Assembly: GCA_963772365.1 (NCBI GenBank)
Contig: CAVYXA010000001.1
Location: 576,001-640,000 of the forward strand
Reading direction: 5' to 3'
Source: an uncultured Verrucomicrobiae bacterium
GTDB lineage: Bacteria > Verrucomicrobiota > Verrucomicrobiia > Chthoniobacterales > UBA10450
DNA: 64,000 nucleotides
Shown: positions 15,643 through 30,766 of the stretch, in pieces
Layout: each line of letters begins with the position of its first letter
Position numbering within the stretch: position 1 is the stretch's first letter
Notes under the pieces: generated by a model
Database searches by the model: none
Told to the model about the DNA's origin: nothing
The model's input: only the letters and a program-made list of their open reading frames with translations
Made by a program: the position numbers and the translations under genes

Positions 15643-15693
15643 TTGTAGGGCAGGCGCTCCGCCTGCCGGGCAAGCGAGGCGCTTGCCCTACAA
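15643..15693. repeat. GTAG-type REP doublet between convergent CDF and uppS
   Basis: TTGTAGGGCAGGCGCTCCGCCTGCC-G-GGCAAGCGAGGCGCTTGCCCTACAA; same family as 22827-23046 and 43773-43845. Confidence 0.85.
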
Positions 15694-20540: not shown

Positions 20541-21470
<930 letters not shown>

Positions 21471-21490
<20 letters not shown>

Positions 21491-21680
21491 GCATGGCATC
21501 TCCGCAGAGCAGGAGCGCGCGATGCGGCGGGAACAAAATCGAAAAGACCTGCTCTATTGTGCATCGTGGTCGCTGGCCCAAAAAATCGAGGCTGTGGAAG
21601 GAATGGAACAAGTGGCCCGCTCGATCCGGCGTGAAAAGTTCTCCTCCACAACCGACGAGCACGAAGAACTCAAGTGGTAA
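21471..21680 (+). CDS. Small helical hypothetical protein (69 aa), partner of the upstream nucleotidyltransferase
   Basis: AGGGGG RBS; overlaps the 3' end of the NTase gene. Confidence 0.6.
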
Positions 21681-21704: not shown

Positions 21705-22814
21705 GTGGAGAAGTTTGATTTCTTAATCGTCGGCGCGGGCTTTGCCGGCGCCGTCCTGGCAGAACGAATCGCCACTCAACTCGGCAAGACCTGTCTCGTG
21801 GTAGAGCGCCGCAACCACATCGCCGGCAACGCTTACGATCATTACGACGAAGCCGGCGTGCTCGTCCACGATTACGGACCGCACTATTTCCGGACAAACT
21901 CGCAACGGATTGTCGATTATCTCAGCCGGTTCACCGACTGGCGCCCGGTCGATTACAAGATTCTCTCCTGGACCAACGGTCGTTACTGGCAGTTCCCGAT
22001 TAATCTCAACACGTTCGAACAATTCATCGGCCGGCCATCCACCAGCCAAGAGATGGAAGAGCAACTGGCCAAGTGGCGGGTCAAGATCGACAACCCGAAG
22101 AACTCCGAGGAAGTAATCGTGTCCCAAGTCGGCTGGCAGTTGTATGAGATGTTTTTTAAAAATTACACGCGCAAACAATGGCAGCGCGACGCCAAAGATC
22201 TCGACCCAAGCGTGTGCGGCCGGATCCCGATTCGGACCAACCGCGACGACCGATATCTGTCCGAGAAATTTCAGGCTCTGCCGAGTGAAGGTTACACCAG
22301 GTTATTCGAACGAATGCTGGATAATCCCAGGATCAACATTCGCCTCAACACCGATTTTCGTGAGGCGCGCGAACAGCTCGCATATCGACATCTCATTTAC
22401 ACTGGTCCCATCGACGAATACTACGATCATTGTTTTGGTCATCTGCCTTATCGCTCGCTCCGGTTTGAACCGGAGAACCTGTGCCAGGAATTTTTCCAGC
22501 TGGCGATGCAGGTAAATTACCCGAACGATCACGAATTCACCCGGATCGTGGAGATCAAACACGCCACGGGACAAAAAATAGGATCGACAACGATCGTGCG
22601 CGAATATCCGCAGGAATTCGGTCCGGGGTGCGAGCCATATTATCCGGTCCCGGCCCCCGATGCCAAAGCGCTCTACGCAAAATATGCCGGGCGCGCCGCG
22701 GCCGAGAAAAAGGTCAGCTTCGTGGGACGCCTGGCTACTTATCGCTACTACAACATGGACCAGGTAGTCGCCATGGCGCTGTCGGAATTCGAAAAGCTGC
22801 GAGCGGGAGGTTGA
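21705..22814 (+). CDS. glf: UDP-galactopyranose mutase
   Basis: IVGAGFAG, HIAGNAYD, YGPHYFRT, LPYRSL.FE, EPYYP, GRLATYRYYNMDQ. Confidence 0.95.
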   Translation: MEKFDFLIVGAGFAGAVLAERIATQLGKTCLVVERRNHIAGNAYDHYDEAGVLVHDYGPHYFRTNSQRIVDYLSRFTDWRPVDYKILSWTNGRYWQFPINLNTFEQFIGRPSTSQEMEEQLAKWRVKIDNPKNSEEVIVSQVGWQLYEMFFKNYTRKQWQRDAKDLDPSVCGRIPIRTNRDDRYLSEKFQALPSEGYTRLFERMLDNPRINIRLNTDFREAREQLAYRHLIYTGPIDEYYDHCFGHLPYRSLRFEPENLCQEFFQLAMQVNYPNDHEFTRIVEIKHATGQKIGSTTIVREYPQEFGPGCEPYYPVPAPDAKALYAKYAGRAAAEKKVSFVGRLATYRYYNMDQVVAMALSEFEKLRAGG

Positions 22815-22826
22815 GAAATAACGATT

Positions 22827-23046
22827 TGGCAAGCGGAGCGCTTGCCCTACAAACATGGACTTCGAATTGTAGGGCGGGTGTATCGCCTGTCCCGGCGCAG
22901 GGCTGGCAAACGGAGCGCTTGCGCTACAAACATGGATTCCGAACTGTGGGGCGGGCGCATCGCCTGCCCCGGCGCAGGGACTGGCAAGCGAGGCGCTTGC
23001 CCTACAAACATGGATTCCGAATTGTAGGGCGGGCGCACCGCCTGCC
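22827..23046. repeat. Tandem array of about 2.8 units (77-78 bp) of GTAG REP doublets (BIME-like)
   Basis: Units start at 22827, 22904 and 22982: TGGCAAGCG..GCGCTTGCCCTACA-AACATGGA...GAA-TTGTAGGGCGGGCG...CGCCTG.CC-CGGCGCAGGG. Confidence 0.9.
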
Positions 23047-23122
23047 TACCGTTTTCGTATGTGACGAATGTCGCCATCGGTGAGATTGCCCCTAGCTGCG
23101 TGAGCTGTTAAATTAGGCAATC

Positions 23123-23362
23123 ATGCATCTGGCTGAAACTCCGGAAGAACAACGCAAATGGATGCAACAATGGCGTGAAGCGGAGAAATATCTGCGGCAG
23201 GTGAAACGGGAAGAACTGCGCGCGATGACAGATCAGGACGCGGTGGCCGCTTTCAATGCCTTGGATATGCCGCTCCATCTCGTCTGGCGCAGTCCCGAAC
23301 GTGTAAACAGCGAGGGTTTGATCGAACAGCAACGCATTTTCAAGAAAGCGCACCGCCATTAA
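23123..23362 (+). CDS. Small helical hypothetical protein (79 aa) upstream of a nucleotidyltransferase
   Basis: Clean ORF whose stop overlaps the start position of the next gene. Confidence 0.65.
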   Translation: MHLAETPEEQRKWMQQWREAEKYLRQVKREELRAMTDQDAVAAFNALDMPLHLVWRSPERVNSEGLIEQQRIFKKAHRH

Positions 23363-23930
23363 CAAGGTTTTCGAAGCCGCACTTGAGCTCCAAGATTTCT
23401 GCAAATCGCAGAATCATCCTTTCTGCTTTATTGGTGGCCTGGCCGTTCAGCGATGGGGTGAGCCCCGCCTAACGATAGACGCGGGCGCTACTTTGCTGAC
23501 CCGTTTTGAAAACGAGCCCGCTCTTGTGTCCGCCTTGACGAAAAAGTTCCGAACCCGGCGCGCAGACGCAGCTGATTTTGCCCTAAAAGCTCGCGTCGTG
23601 CTCCTCTTGGGTTCCAACGATGTTCCAATCGATATCGCCTTAGGAGGTATGCCTTTTGAGGAGCGGACCATAACGCGCGCTTCACTTTGGGAAATTTCGG
23701 AAAGAGACAGCCTCATCACCTGTTCTGCGGAAGACTTGATCGTGCACAAGGCGTTCGCTAATCGCCAGCTCGATTGGCTCGACCTCCAAGGAATTCTCCG
23801 GCGTCAGCGAGAACAACTAAATCTAAAACTCGTGTTTCAAGAGCTGCGGCCGCTGTTGCAGCTAAAAGAAGCGCCCGAAATCGAGGACCGCTTGCGCCGG
23901 ATGATCGAAAATGAGACAGCCGAAAATTGA
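23358..23930 (+). CDS. Pol-beta-fold nucleotidyltransferase, probably degenerate (ATT start, DxD changed to DAG)
   Basis: Frame extends upstream of the tracked ORF: INKVFEAALELQDFC...FIGGLAVQRWGEPRLTIDAG; C-terminal SAEDLIVHKAFANR.LDW.D. Confidence 0.75.
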   Translation: MNKVFEAALELQDFCKSQNHPFCFIGGLAVQRWGEPRLTIDAGATLLTRFENEPALVSALTKKFRTRRADAADFALKARVVLLLGSNDVPIDIALGGMPFEERTITRASLWEISERDSLITCSAEDLIVHKAFANRQLDWLDLQGILRRQREQLNLKLVFQELRPLLQLKEAPEIEDRLRRMIENETAEN

Positions 23931-23934
23931 GCGG

Positions 23935-24010
23935 TCGCTACTACAACATGGACCAGATGATCGGCATGGCCCTGGCGGAATTTGAAAAGCTGGCGATGAA
24001 AGACGTTTGA
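23935..24010 (+). repeat. Second, diverged copy of the glf 3' end
   Basis: 22-bp identity TCGCTACTACAACATGGACCAG with 22742-22763; translates RYYNMDQMIGMALAEFEKLAMKDV* versus glf RYYNMDQVVAMALSEFEKLRAGG*. Confidence 0.9.
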
Positions 24011-24034: not shown

Positions 24035-25024
24035 TCACATTTCGAGCTGTTTCAGCTCCGCTTCCACCATTTCGCTGACCAACTGTTCGAACGTGCCACT
24101 CGGTTTCCAGCCAAGTGTCGTGCGAATCTTATCGTCGCAACCGACCAGCCGCGTCGGTTCCGCTGGACGATTAAACGCCGGATCGAATTTTACGTACTTT
24201 TTCCAAGGAAGATCGACGGCTGCGAATGCGGCCTCGACAAAATCCCGAACAGAATGAGTCTCGCCCGTGGCAACGATATAATCATCTGCTGTGTCGTGTT
24301 GTAGCATCAGCCACATCGCTTGCACGTAATCCTGCGCTCGGCCCCAGTCTCTTCGGCTTTCCAGATTCCCGAGCACAACATCCTGATCAAGCCCCCTGGC
24401 GATTCGCGCGGCTGCCCGCGCAATCTTGCGGGTGACAAAATTTTCACCGCGCCGGGGAGATTCATGATTGTAGAGAATTCCGTTGCAAACAAACATTGCG
24501 TAAGATTTCCGGTAAACTCGGCCCAATTGCGTGGCGAAGGCTTTGGCGCAACCGTAAGGACTCGTCGGTGAAATCGGCGTATTTTCGCTTTGCGGCATTT
24601 CTGCCGCACTACCGAAAATTTCCGAGCTCGACGCATGATAAAAACGCACCGATTGCGACTGATCGCGCACGATTTCGAGCAGGCGAAGCGTCGCCATTCC
24701 GGCTTCGTCGCAAGTTGATTCCGGGATTTCGAAACTCAAGCCGACATGGCTTTGACCAGCCAGATGATAAAACTCACTCGGCTTCACATCGCGAAAAATC
24801 CGTCGCAGCGTCGTACTATCCGAGAGGTCGCCGTAGTGAAGAAACAATCGGTGACCATAAACCTTTTCGTCCCGCCGCAAATGCTCGATGCGCGACCGAA
24901 GCAGATTGCTGGTGCGCCTTACGATTCCGTGGACAGTATAGTTTTTTTCCAAAAGTAGCTCGGCAAGATAAGAACCATCCTGGCCAGTGATCCCGGTAAT
25001 GAGGGCGATTTTCGGCTCGCTCAT
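24035..25024 (-). CDS. gmd: GDP-mannose 4,6-dehydratase
   Basis: ALITGITGQDGSYLAELLL, LAGQSHV..SF, SPYGCAK, NHESPRRGENFVTRKI, RDWG. Confidence 0.93.
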   Translation of the reverse strand: MSEPKIALITGITGQDGSYLAELLLEKNYTVHGIVRRTSNLLRSRIEHLRRDEKVYGHRLFLHYGDLSDSTTLRRIFRDVKPSEFYHLAGQSHVGLSFEIPESTCDEAGMATLRLLEIVRDQSQSVRFYHASSSEIFGSAAEMPQSENTPISPTSPYGCAKAFATQLGRVYRKSYAMFVCNGILYNHESPRRGENFVTRKIARAAARIARGLDQDVVLGNLESRRDWGRAQDYVQAMWLMLQHDTADDYIVATGETHSVRDFVEAAFAAVDLPWKKYVKFDPAFNRPAEPTRLVGCDDKIRTTLGWKPSGTFEQLVSEMVEAELKQLEM

Positions 25025-27280: not shown

Positions 27281-28127
27281 ATGCGATTTAGTCGCGGTTT
27301 GAAAAAGGCCATCGTCACTATTTGTCCTGGCGGACGCCAAAGGAAAATTCTGAATATCGTCTGGCCAACTTGGGACGGGTTCAGCAAGCGTGTTGGCATT
27401 CCGCTCGTCGTAATCGAACGGCCGCTGCACCCGCAGCACTTCTATTGGGGCAAATATTTTCCGTTCGAGATGCGGGAGTTAAACGGGTTCGACGCAGTTT
27501 TGTATCTTGATAATGACGTAATCATTAGTCCCAAAAGCTCTTCCCCATTCGACCAGTGGAATCCCGAGTTGATTGGAATTGTCGACGAACGTAAGCAGCA
27601 GTCGCTCGATGAGATCGCGACCCGTCAGGTACTATCATTCCTACGGCATTCCGGATTCAGCAATACCGACAGCAGCCAAGATTTATAATACGGGCCTTCT
27701 GATCTATTCGCGTGCAAGTGCGCCGTTTTTCAAAAGCATTTATACTCATTGGCAGGATTTCCTCCAACAAATGGCCGACGGCCAGAAACGCCATTATTTG
27801 TTCAGTATTGCCGACCAACCGCACGTCTCGCTCGCTCTTCAGCGGGAAAAAATGGCATATGAACTCGATGTCCGCTTCAACACTCTCTGGTGGCACTGGT
27901 ACCAGAACAATATCAGTACGCGCCATCTTCCCTTCCTCTTGCGATCAAAAGCTGCGGCCTTGACCGTAGACCGGCTTCCGCCAAAACTTTGGTGCTCCAT
28001 TTTCCGCCGCGAAAGAGCGATCTTTGCCGCTGCGCGAGACCGATGTCATTTCCTCCATGTGGCCGGAAGCAAATCTTCGCTCTTTCTGAGCATCGAACCT
28101 AGGCCTTCCATGCAAAGTAATAAATAA
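27281..28127 (+). pseudogene. GT-A fold (GT8-like) glycosyltransferase split by a +1 frameshift
   Basis: VLYLDNDVII (DxD) in the 5' frame; YNTGLL, DQ.HV, FN.LW, FLHVAG in the 3' frame; removing one C from CCC at 27621-27623 joins them. Confidence 0.65.
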
Positions 28128-28290
28128 TGTTTCACCAATGGGACCAGTTAATCTCAAAAGACCTCGTCGTGATCAGCCCGACTAATGGCTCTATGCGGAC
28201 TTTCGACTCTCCCGCGAAAGCATTTTAAATCGCATCTTGGTTAATGCCTCGACCGCCACCTAGCCCCAACCGAATCCGCAACACAGACCG

Positions 28291-29067
28291 ATGATTCAGC
28301 TTCTTCATATTTTCAGGCGCAAGGCGACGACGCTGGGACTGACGATTAGGATATGCTCAAATTGGCCCTCGATTACCCTAGCCAAACTCGGACTTTCCAG
28401 CGGACCAGAGATCATTCGCTTTCGGGACGGTTTTCGACTTAAAATTCTTCGCCCGCTCAAAAGTACCTGGGGCGAAATCTTCGAGCCGGCGATTGCCGAT
28501 GTTTACCAGATTGCCCGGCAAGCACCAGAGCTGATTATCGATGTAGGCGCGAATATCGGGGCGTTCGCCTGCCGGTCTGCCTTTTTGCACTCTAACGCGA
28601 CGATCCACGCGTTTGAACCTTCAGCTGAACATGGAGCGATGCTTCGAAAGAATATTGGCGTAAATGGCCTCTCAAATGTAATAGTCCACGATTACCCCGT
28701 TACGAAGGATGGTAGAGAGGTAATTTTTTCACGGATTGGTGCCGGCGGTAGCTCGGGGATCTTTCTTAAGGACAATAGCGATTCCGCAATTCCCCTAAAA
28801 AGCGTTTCACTCGACGGAATCGATTTTGCAGCGTTTGAGTCCTGCTTTTTCAAACTCGATTGCGAAGGAGCCGAAGGCGAACTTATCGAGTGGATCTGTT
28901 CAAACCTCTCCAAGTTGCCGAAATACATCGTGCTTGTATGTGAATATCATCCTTGGTGCCCAGTGCCGATTGATGAGAGTCTGGCGAAATTGAAAGCAAG
29001 CGGGTTTTCGGCGGAACAAAAAGATCCCTTCGATGAGTGTTACATTTTCGCTTCAAAAGATCATTGA
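28291..29067 (+). CDS. FkbM-family methyltransferase
   Basis: IIDVGANIG, IHAFEPS, FKLDCEGAE. Confidence 0.88.
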   Translation: MIQLLHIFRRKATTLGLTIRICSNWPSITLAKLGLSSGPEIIRFRDGFRLKILRPLKSTWGEIFEPAIADVYQIARQAPELIIDVGANIGAFACRSAFLHSNATIHAFEPSAEHGAMLRKNIGVNGLSNVIVHDYPVTKDGREVIFSRIGAGGSSGIFLKDNSDSAIPLKSVSLDGIDFAAFESCFFKLDCEGAEGELIEWICSNLSKLPKYIVLVCEYHPWCPVPIDESLAKLKASGFSAEQKDPFDECYIFASKDH

Positions 29068-29230
29068 GCTGGCGGCAGGCCTACGAAGTGTTACTGACCC
29101 GACATGATCCTCTCCATTACTGGGGCAGTCCTTCGAACAGATGTGGGTACAAAGTTCCTCGCCATTATTCTGAAAGCCTAAACGCGTTGAAGCATTTGAG
29201 GACAAGGAAAATTCGGTTAATCAGGCGGTA

Positions 29231-30643
29231 ATGCTAAGGAACTTTATTCGTCGCACCTACAGCTCGGCGGTGGCATGGAGCCTTGTTTTCGCGGTCGTTC
29301 GCAGCTGTGGCAACCTGCTCGTGCTCCCGTTGATGTTGCACAAACTGCCCCAGGAGCATCTCGGCTTCTGGTACGTTTTTTTATCGCTGGCCGGGCTTTC
29401 GACTCTTGTGGACATGGGATTCTTTCCAACGATGTCGCGTGTCACAGCCTATCTCTGGGTGGGCGCAAAGCAGATCGACAAACTAGGAGTAACCCCAGTT
29501 CAGAAGGAGGCTGGTTCCAGCGCAACGCCAAATTTTCAGCTTCTTGCCGATCTCGTGAAGACGATGCGATTCTATTATTTAGGTCTGGGCATTTTGATCA
29601 CGCTCGTACTGGCAATTTTCGGAACGCACTGGATCGCCCAGAAAGCTGAACATCTCGCTGGCACACGCAGCGTTCTTGGAGCGTGGTTTCTCTTTCTACC
29701 AGCTATTTTCGTAAATATTGCCAGCGGAATGTGGCATCCTCTCCTTTCGGGCATCAACCAGGTCCGTCTCAATCTCCAGATTCTTATTTGGAGCCTTATT
29801 GCCAACTATCTGATCTCGTTTGCTGGATTGCTTATCGGGCTGGGACTGTTTGCACCGGTGGCCGGATATTTGGCCATGGGCTTGATTTCGCGGACAGCAG
29901 CGCGGAGCAAGTTCCGCCACTTCAGCCAGGCGCATATCTACGCGAGTCATGCGCGTTGGTCACGCGAGTTGCTGGCGCGTTTATGGCCGACGGCCTGGCG
30001 CACGGGTCTTGTGAGCGTTGGGCTTTATGGAACCCTCAATTTCAACACCCTCATTTGCACAGCCTACCTCGGAGTGAAAACGGCAGCCTCATTTGGGCTC
30101 AGCCAGCAACTGGCCTTCGCGGCAATGTCTATTGCCAGCGGTTTTTTTCTTGTAAAGATTCCCTTGATCGCGCAGCTACGCGCGTCAGGGAAGGTCGACG
30201 AGATTTCCCGAATCATCTTTCCGCGGATGCGATGGTTTTGGGCGGTTTACATCGGGCTTGCTGCTGCCGCCATCATCGTCGGCGAACCGGTACTACGCGA
30301 TGTTCTTCACTCGCAGACTCCTTTGCTGTCTACCTCCCTCCTGATTGGACTATTCGCTGTCGTAGGCCTTGAGGGCCATCACGCAGTTTTTCGAGAAATC
30401 ACACTTACGTCGCACTGTAATCCATTTGCCGCACCGGTGATAATTGCCGCTATCTTCATTGTTTTGTTAAGTTTAATCCTGGTGCGATGGTTTGGGTTGT
30501 GGGGTCTGATCGTTGCTCCTGGCATAGTCCAGCTATGCTTTAATAACTGGTGGACCGTTCTCGTCGGTCTTCGCTCAATGGAAAAATCAGTGCGCGACTA
30601 CATTTACGGGCTTGTGGGCATACGCCGGAGTAGCAGTGGGTAA
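29231..30643 (+). CDS. Polysaccharide flippase (Wzx/MOP-like)
   Basis: About 12 hydrophobic segments, LG.WYVFLSL...DMGF motif, position in a polysaccharide cluster. Confidence 0.75.
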   Translation: MLRNFIRRTYSSAVAWSLVFAVVRSCGNLLVLPLMLHKLPQEHLGFWYVFLSLAGLSTLVDMGFFPTMSRVTAYLWVGAKQIDKLGVTPVQKEAGSSATPNFQLLADLVKTMRFYYLGLGILITLVLAIFGTHWIAQKAEHLAGTRSVLGAWFLFLPAIFVNIASGMWHPLLSGINQVRLNLQILIWSLIANYLISFAGLLIGLGLFAPVAGYLAMGLISRTAARSKFRHFSQAHIYASHARWSRELLARLWPTAWRTGLVSVGLYGTLNFNTLICTAYLGVKTAASFGLSQQLAFAAMSIASGFFLVKIPLIAQLRASGKVDEISRIIFPRMRWFWAVYIGLAAAAIIVGEPVLRDVLHSQTPLLSTSLLIGLFAVVGLEGHHAVFREITLTSHCNPFAAPVIIAAIFIVLLSLILVRWFGLWGLIVAPGIVQLCFNNWWTVLVGLRSMEKSVRDYIYGLVGIRRSSSG

Positions 30644-30766
30644 ATCGGCAAGGACGTTGCCCGAAATCTACATAGTGGCAAAATCTTTGCCCATATTGAG
30701 CAGCACTTCAATGGCGTGTTTTTTAGCCTAACCTTTCGTTCAAATGATCTGGTCGCGGAATTAAAC

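Follow-up and report, generated by a model that had tools for sequence, protein, structure and literature searches.

The question raised by the locus described here is how a pair of small genes, accompanied by no tyrosine recombinase, came to lie between two versions of the 3' end of a single gene, and which of these two ends was the earlier occupant. The locus is part of a stretch of 64,000 nucleotides from an uncultured Verrucomicrobiae bacterium (contig CAVYXA010000001.1, positions 576,001 to 640,000), which is referred to below as the window, and the gene concerned is glf. A sequence-only reading of this region had proposed that a mini-element entered glf at its conserved YYNMDQ codons, brought along a replacement 3' end from another glf allele and displaced the resident end, in a manner resembling the integration of an island. 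The arrival of toxin-antitoxin pairs on chromosomes without a vehicle is treated as an open question in PMC13617665, and about half of the HGT hotspots are described in PMC5635113 as being without evidence of mobile elements.

Organization of the islet at the 3' end of glf

The features of the islet are listed in Table 1. The direct repeat that brackets it is 58 nt long (22742-22799 and 23935-23992) with 88% identity and a spacing of 1,193 nt between its copies, and the 22-mer noticed previously (22742-22763 and 23935-23956) is confirmed as its first and exactly matching part. In the entire 3.35-Mb genome, the second copy is the sole other match of this sequence (E 3.9e-13). The homology to glf in this copy begins abruptly, 4 nt past the stop of the nucleotidyltransferase (NTase), and its translation (RYYNMDQMIGMALAEFEKLAMKDV, followed by a stop) stays in frame up to a stop of its own at 24010, as stated in the earlier description of it as a diverged alternative C-terminus; the displaced stop is separated by 24 nt from the stop of the converging gmd gene. 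Between the two copies are found, also as described before, only a REP array, a 79-aa ORF and the NTase ORF ending at 23930. The GC content of the insert (55%) is similar to that of glf. The two REP motifs have 64 and 44 matches in the genome (up to 3 mismatches), and although the spacer of the REPs resembles the glf motif, this likeness was discarded, as the REP at window position 15669 has an identical spacer start. No tyrosine recombinase was found within or close to the islet, the 8 matches to such proteins in the genome all being distant, and the absence of a recombinase on board is, for this class of enzymes, borne out for the islet as well as its surroundings.

Table 1. Coordinates, within the window, of the features at the glf islet
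Feature	Position	Strand	Basis or remark
glf, UDP-galactopyranose mutase, 369 aa (anchor gene)	21705..22814	+	PF03275, E 2e-76; TIGR00031, 374 bits (over cut-off)
Live glf tail (putative incoming allele)	22742..22814	+	Includes repeat copy 1 (22742-22799)
Three REP-doublet units, inverted pairs	22827..23057	.	Genome-wide repeat, not islet-specific
79-aa gene, predicted MenA1-like antitoxin	23123..23362	+	Size and position
MenT1/AbiEii-like nucleotidyltransferase, about 190 aa (predicted)	23358..23930	+	Profile, Foldseek and AbiEii matches
Illegitimate joint (proposed)	23935..23940	+	CGCT at 23936-23939 in register with the NTase flank of G061/G062
Displaced glf tail with its own stop (putative old resident end)	23935..24010	+	Repeat and translation
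gmd, GDP-mannose 4,6-dehydratase	24035..25024	-	PF16363, E 6e-126

The two tails differ in a manner that is seen among natural glf alleles. The residues A and S that are present in the live tail at two of the differing positions are minority states found in 18 and 9, respectively, of 83 homologs. Of the four differing residues in the displaced tail, three are likewise natural (present in 11, 64 and 51 of the 83 homologs), and the fourth (M) occurs in none of them. The islet at glf, taken by itself, is an ordinary single scar.

The region behind glnB, where the polysaccharide cluster begins, is a shuffling hotspot: the order of the genes 3' of glnB (viz. gmd, glf and NTase pairs) varies in nearly every relative (L031-L035, L210-L229). 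Between glnB and glf (window 20975-21680), a second nucleotidyltransferase, which is DUF6036-like and frameshifted, is present together with a small gene, and an intact ortholog of it is found at the equivalent place in G034.

The cargo is predicted to be a MenA1/MenT1-like gene pair

The cargo could not be named by searches with PADLOC and NCBIfam, the 79-aa gene also has no Pfam name, and a single-sequence search of the PDB gave 0 matches. A profile constructed from 22 NTase sequences matches MenT1 (PDB 8AN4; E 1.7e-5), 17 of these 22 family members match AbiEii, and for the structure model of the NTase (pLDDT 94.8) the top five Foldseek hits are all MenT1 (E 5e-10 to 1e-8). In alignment with MenT1, whose catalytic residue roles were taken from PMC11375011, the residues corresponding to T39, D41, K137 and D152 are kept, and the NTase is in this way predicted, by fold and by alignment, to possess both the MenT1 fold and the catalytic Thr, Asp, Lys and Asp. 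Based upon these results the cargo is predicted to be a toxin-antitoxin pair of MenA1/MenT1 type, with the 79-aa gene, by its size and position, as its MenA1-like antitoxin. In comparison with the MenA1-MenT1 pair as described in PMC11375011 (PDB 8AN4/8AN5), the islet pair shares the fold, the small upstream gene and the four aligned residues; it differs in that the NTase shows about 20% identity to MenT1, that its activity is a prediction, and that the second Asp of the DxD motif, which is Asp in 19 of 21 homologs, is a Gly in the islet copy, due to which this copy may be weakened.

The NTase was matched in 37 of 355 genomes of the family (this count, and that of 137/151 for thrS given below, take in the unpublished genomes G008 and G226), and the small gene is directly upstream of it in most of the NTase loci that were fetched. 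The probable start codon of the NTase is an ATT overlapping the upstream TAA stop (23358-23362). As the same overlap is kept in 3/3 homologs compared (L171, L172 and L173), the idea that the ATT is a mutation of the islet copy was dropped, and the overlap is possibly a conserved translation brake. Among viral contigs, 30 pattern matches were obtained with the NTase alignment, of which 0 were confirmed.

The closest copies of the cargo (80% nt identity) are found in G061 and G062 within the same glnB-gmd-glf polysaccharide hotspot, and in G061 the pair adjoins the 5' end of gmd. In both of these genomes, the tetranucleotide CGCT noted in Table 1 recurs in register after the NTase stop, as is predicted for a joint made by microhomology. 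The suggestion of microhomology here comes from one post-hoc match of 4 nt in two genomes of one genus, and such a joint could also have arisen from a deletion at a later time.

The 22-mer is a common spelling and not a special site

The proposed targeting of the YYNMDQ codons was not supported. The identical 22-mer is shared by 8 of the 84 other glf alleles that contain the motif and is the commonest spelling among them, due to which it does not represent a special site and the exact identity of the two copies over 22 nt is also unremarkable. In the survey of glf, 179 loci were fetched, of which 134 contained a glf 3' end (some of these repeat one locus, and many extend only 1.5 kb downstream). 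Besides the window's own locus, these loci include one with a downstream glf tail and one with an upstream fragment. The downstream tail, in G002 (L032:12332-12445), comes from a distant clade (53% aa identity) and is located 4 kb behind an intact glf; it begins at a different position from that in the window. In the loci examined, many with just 1.5 kb downstream, no second insertion at the same glf codon was found, and the comparison of glf-gmd loci suggested by the earlier reading also revealed no empty glf-gmd site. Further, a donor allele combining glf with the gene pair was not seen in these loci, and a search of genome contigs for the junction pattern gave 0 matches.

Of the 30 close homologs, 12 are nearer to the live glf tail and 14 are nearer to the displaced tail, with 4 ties. 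Similarity to homologs thus leaves the direction undecided at glf itself, where we infer it from other genes. The earlier claim that the cargo arrived together with a replacement 3' end and displaced the resident one is supported, the two ends being different natural alleles; direct evidence for its direction comes only from thrS in relatives.

Displaced gene ends elsewhere in the genome

For each of the 2,363 ORFs in this genome with 170 aa or more, repeats of the last 120 nt were sought within 8 kb downstream. In 30 of the 2,363 ORFs, only these last 120 nt were repeated downstream; for the middle portion, this was the case in 1. In 19 more ORFs, the end was repeated upstream, mostly representing paralogous domains as judged by eye. 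Of the 30 cases, 14 were kept upon inspection by eye, 12 were dropped as repeats of paralogous domains or REPs, and four complicated cases (viz. aconitase, a DDAH-like gene, an ECF tandem and an Rhs-like cassette) were set aside. The 14 curated genes are ispH, pfk, glf, thiC (with two tails), an aldehyde dehydrogenase gene (aldH), an Iso_dh-family gene, an ABC-2 permease, ada, thrS, gnd, DUF885, an MFS gene, an ABC ATPase and a dockerin-tailed protein; the names are based on Pfam, whereas the sequence itself was the basis for naming thrS, thiC and the dockerin-tailed protein. At 8 of the 14 genes, the cargo is of the toxin-antitoxin type, and the cargo at thiC encodes an HNH_2 protein and that at pfk a methylase-Mrr-like protein.

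A comparison of the 15 tails at these 14 genes with the live ends revealed 181 synonymous and 75 non-synonymous differences and 0 stop changes. The synonymous fraction is 71%, versus 30% in a neutral simulation, and an indel is present in 3 of the 15 tails. Changes that are mostly synonymous, with no stops and three indels, indicate that the displaced tails are alleles that are starting to decay. Within the repeats of thiC, thrS and pfk are found near-identical blocks, which could be crossover tracts or due to later gene conversion. The junctions (n=17) show no common motif or codon phase, which again does not agree with a targeting of particular codons. At glf, ispH and thrS, the joint follows the cargo stop by 4 nt, and in three relatives by 5-8 nt; the chance for a gap between -3 and +8 is 3.7%, and many other gaps measure tens to hundreds of bases. 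Mirror-image scars, at the 5' end, were seen in five genes.

A number of other arrangements were observed in these loci. An ORF for a PemK toxin is fused in frame to the dockerin remnant, i.e. the displaced tail (L082:2732-3184), and the frame of an ORF6N protein runs on through the gnd remnant (L078:2561-3469). Within the thrS frame, about 100 nt (L077:1691-1791) that match scattered repeats elsewhere are absent from the DNA alignments with four relatives, and this stretch is probably an in-frame insert of a repeat. A short repeat array is located beside a cas4-cas1 fusion, the 5' end of which has a second copy upstream, the two copies flanking a Phd-PIN pair (L070; G000:C1, about 93076-96761). 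The 3' part of aconitase is duplicated (about 700 nt, 80%) around a DUF5615 pair (L083; G000:C6, about 27400-30700), and its upstream copy is broken into several ORFs, reflecting a possible frameshift or assembly error. Lastly, one protein-end stretch is stacked three times with small gene pairs, including DUF2283, between the copies (L087; G000:C4, about 156187-157663).

Displaced tails of thrS and other genes in related genomes

The last 62 aa of thrS, used as the query, matched in 137 of 151 genomes, with two or more matches in 20 of them (own genome included). From the 19 other genomes with multiple matches 20 regions were fetched, and displaced thrS tails were clear in 12 of these genomes and were recognized by self-alignment in 3 more (G144, G343 and G364); no displaced thrS tail was present within the stretches fetched from G145, G217, G082 and G244. 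Displaced thrS tails are thus found in at least 16 of the 137 genomes (own included), which do not all represent independent events, as many of these genomes belong to one genus. The measured tails (n=18) start 89-409 nt before the end of the gene and the cargo associated with them is varied, which is likewise at odds with entry at one conserved codon. For aldH, tails were seen in G218 as well as in 4 of the 29 other loci that were fetched, with starts at 77, 94, 95, 104, 114 and 119 nt before the end and with different cargo. Rows of tails are up to three deep, as at gatB in G001, the sample of which showed such scars at trmD and gatB (three tails). Several tails have internal deletions.

Two kinds of observations bear upon the order in which the tails arrived. 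Amino acid changes per codon are fewer in the gene-proximal tail than in the tail following it in 6 of 7 arrays, with the polarity being reversed in the G149 array; this measure compares different stretches of the tails. Further, two filled/empty pairs were identified. In the first pair, the live thrS end of G145 together with 534 nt aligns without a break (82%) to the displaced tail and next gene of G124, and in the second pair G118 corresponds likewise to G150 over 847 nt (74%). As the displaced tail in these two pairs is still joined to its native neighbour, the direction of insertion is fixed at thrS. In G127 and G121, the live thrS end and the first gene are common over 614 nt, after which the displaced tail follows in G127 and more cargo in G121.

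A tblastn search for tyrosine recombinases in 41 loci (20 thrS loci, 20 loci of the own genome and the glf region) found none. With neither a linked tyrosine recombinase nor a reused fixed site found in the loci examined, the likeness to island integration seen in the earlier reading was not sustained. In a phylum-wide control, thrS was matched in 56 of 201 genomes, nearly all near the threshold, and as such matches could not show tails, this control is uninformative on specificity for the family. No clear scar was found in a 400-kb sample of G042, which belongs to another family of the order, and one doubtful scar was seen in a sample of G150; like those of G001 and G218, these samples do not suffice for estimating a rate.

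Probable host recombination and alternative explanations for the islet

Based on these results, we consider it probable that the islet is the scar of a gene-anchored tail displacement carried out by host recombination. DNA from a related lineage, carrying a glf end followed by REPs and a toxin-antitoxin pair, would have recombined into the resident glf at the homologous end, and its other end would have been joined illegitimately, pushing the old glf end 1.2 kb downstream. Entry of this DNA may have been by natural transformation, with RecA presumably acting at the anchor and the far end joined by microhomology or with the help of Ku. The joint could have been made either on the chromosome, as in homology-facilitated illegitimate recombination (HFIR), or by closing a circle that then entered by one crossover, as in the model for Rhs. 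The genome contains ComEC, DprA and two Ku genes; however, ComEC and DprA are also present in 10 and 11, respectively, of 14 control genomes and are for this reason no proof of competence. As in HFIR, one end of the islet lies within a homologous anchor, the cargo being continuous with an intact glf that carries an allelic tail, and the mirror-image scars at the 5' ends of five genes fit a symmetric host process. Against host recombination, neither an empty glf-gmd site nor a glf donor allele with the pair turned up in the loci examined, the glf tails give no direction by similarity to homologs, the joints cluster at cargo stops more than is predicted for a random joint, and the rarity of HFIR, as described in PMC5361080, fits poorly with scars at thrS in more than 10% of the genomes.

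This clustering is consistent with trimming, as would be expected if the islet were a relic of an integrase-encoding element of the e14/icdC type, which entered a fixed site in glf with a replacement end and retained only its toxin-antitoxin pair. An anatomy of this kind is known from icd-e14-icdC (PMC13626634), and the genome has 8 matches to tyrosine recombinases. Further, as some tails have internal deletions, the present-day junctions may have been trimmed from longer originals and a lost integrase could be hidden. However, this explanation needs a separate integrase for each of at least 14 genes, in addition to the 5' mirror cases, and the absence of tyrosine-recombinase matches in the 41 loci, the variable starts of the tails and the absence of any confirmed viral relative of the NTase make it quite unlikely. 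It is very improbable that a nuclease was the driver, as in homing of the WHO/FBA1 type, where incoming DNA serves to repair a break made in the gene tail by a nuclease that the cargo or some other locus encodes. The WHO clusters, as described in PMC7282813, likewise stack 3' fragments with the newest beside the gene, Ku is present here, and the cargo of thiC and pfk includes the HNH_2 and methylase-Mrr-like proteins. However, the glf cargo is without a nuclease, the fragments in WHO clusters share approximately one start position (PMC7282813) whereas the thrS tails spread over 320 nt, and the first-slot thrS cargo varies between genomes, as judged by eye.

Locally, the structure at glf shows symmetry, and a comparison of the 58 nt does not discriminate the host-recombination reading from its reverse, viz. 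that the cargo was resident and the downstream tail arrived with gmd from another allele. The GC3 of the cargo (0.57) equals that of gmd (0.57) and differs from that of glf (0.67), as the reverse direction would suggest. However, with the proximal tail least changed in 6/7 arrays and with the filled/empty pairs of thrS fitting insertion in the gene-proximal slot, the probability of this alternative is very low. A simple account, according to which glf was duplicated in tandem where it stands, with deletion and neutral decay setting in thereafter, appears highly improbable: the near-identical blocks in thiC, thrS and pfk show that some stretches have a single origin, but the codon pattern noted above (71% synonymous versus 30% expected) largely refutes it, natural states account for three of the four changed residues in the displaced glf tail, and a tandem pair of full-length glf genes, which the earlier reading had named as evidence that would count against its own proposal, was absent among the loci examined. 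If the tandem pair had consisted of two alleles and was then reduced by deletion, this would fall under the explanation favoured here. A chimeric assembly of two strains is extremely unlikely, as the scar is internal to a contig of 1.8 Mb, the contamination being 1.95%, the same anatomy is seen in many independent assemblies, and the junction microhomology agrees with the flank of a relative.

A broader proposal is that the ends of housekeeping genes in this bacterial family serve as an integrase-free capture platform, where recombination between the two tails of an existing scar would pop out a small circle consisting of a tail and its cargo, which would re-enter related alleles by one crossover. 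We regard this as unlikely; if true, toxin-antitoxin and defence genes would spread as mini-elements dependent on RecA only, and integron-like rows would be built behind thrS, aldH, gatB, thiC and glf. 

Arrivals of toxin-antitoxin pairs without a vehicle have left legible scars in this family (at about 14 curated genes of one 3.3-Mb genome, and at thrS in more than one-tenth of the genomes), in rows that are chronological and with filled/empty pairs. Due to these rows and pairs, HFIR, circle integration and trimmed islands can be tested against each other by comparative genomics and reads. The census, the frequency at thrS, the polarity of the arrays and the filled/empty pairs are what this analysis adds.

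Comparison with known systems

In the mostly open-access literature surveyed, no description of tail displacement arrays at housekeeping genes was found. The integrase-less HGT hotspots of Oliveira et al. 2017 (PMC5635113) are similar in that cargo turns over beside core genes without mobility genes. However, the double-crossover model described there replaces the cargo and leaves no duplicated tail, whereas the tail is duplicated here, and the word "illegitimate" is absent from the main text of that paper. Prophage e14 in icd, with its icdC remnant (PMC13626634), likewise provides a replacement 3' end and leaves a displaced C-terminal pseudogene; however, e14 is described as a site-specific and excisable prophage, whereas no tyrosine recombinase and no fixed site were found here. 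The WHO elements at FBA1 (PMC7282813) resemble the present arrays in the repeated replacement of a 3' end, with the newest unit beside the gene, but they are described as dependent on an endonuclease cutting at a single site. Neither such an enzyme nor such a site was found at glf, where the cargo is an NTase pair, and the starts of the tails vary.

Closer parallels are provided by two systems for toxin displacement. In the displacement of T6SS effectors in Vibrio cholerae by HFIR (PMC5361080, PMC2884548), a homologous anchor is similarly combined with an illegitimate joint, the former 3' end moves back and serial arrays are formed. As described there, this process is rare and affects toxin loci, whereas here we infer it at many core genes, and at thrS in over 10% of the genomes, the joint being located within the anchor gene itself. 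In the displacement of Rhs C-termini (Jackson et al. 2009, PMC2935791), for which a RecA-dependent circle was proposed, strings of variable-length 3' fragments likewise lie behind an intact gene without an integrase, and the incoming tip shunts the old tip downstream. Stacked 3' fragments of variable length with the newest proximal are seen here at thrS, gatB and thiC, and glf has a single tail. However, the Rhs anchor is the core of a polymorphic toxin and its tip is the selected payload (PMC2935791), whereas the anchors here (glf, thrS, ispH, gnd, pfk, aldH and others) are not polymorphic toxins but housekeeping genes, the tail is nearly equivalent to the one that it replaces, and the payload consists of unrelated cargo past the stop. 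By analogy, the pattern appears to work like the displacement of Rhs and T6SS tips, yet the locus is not an Rhs locus.
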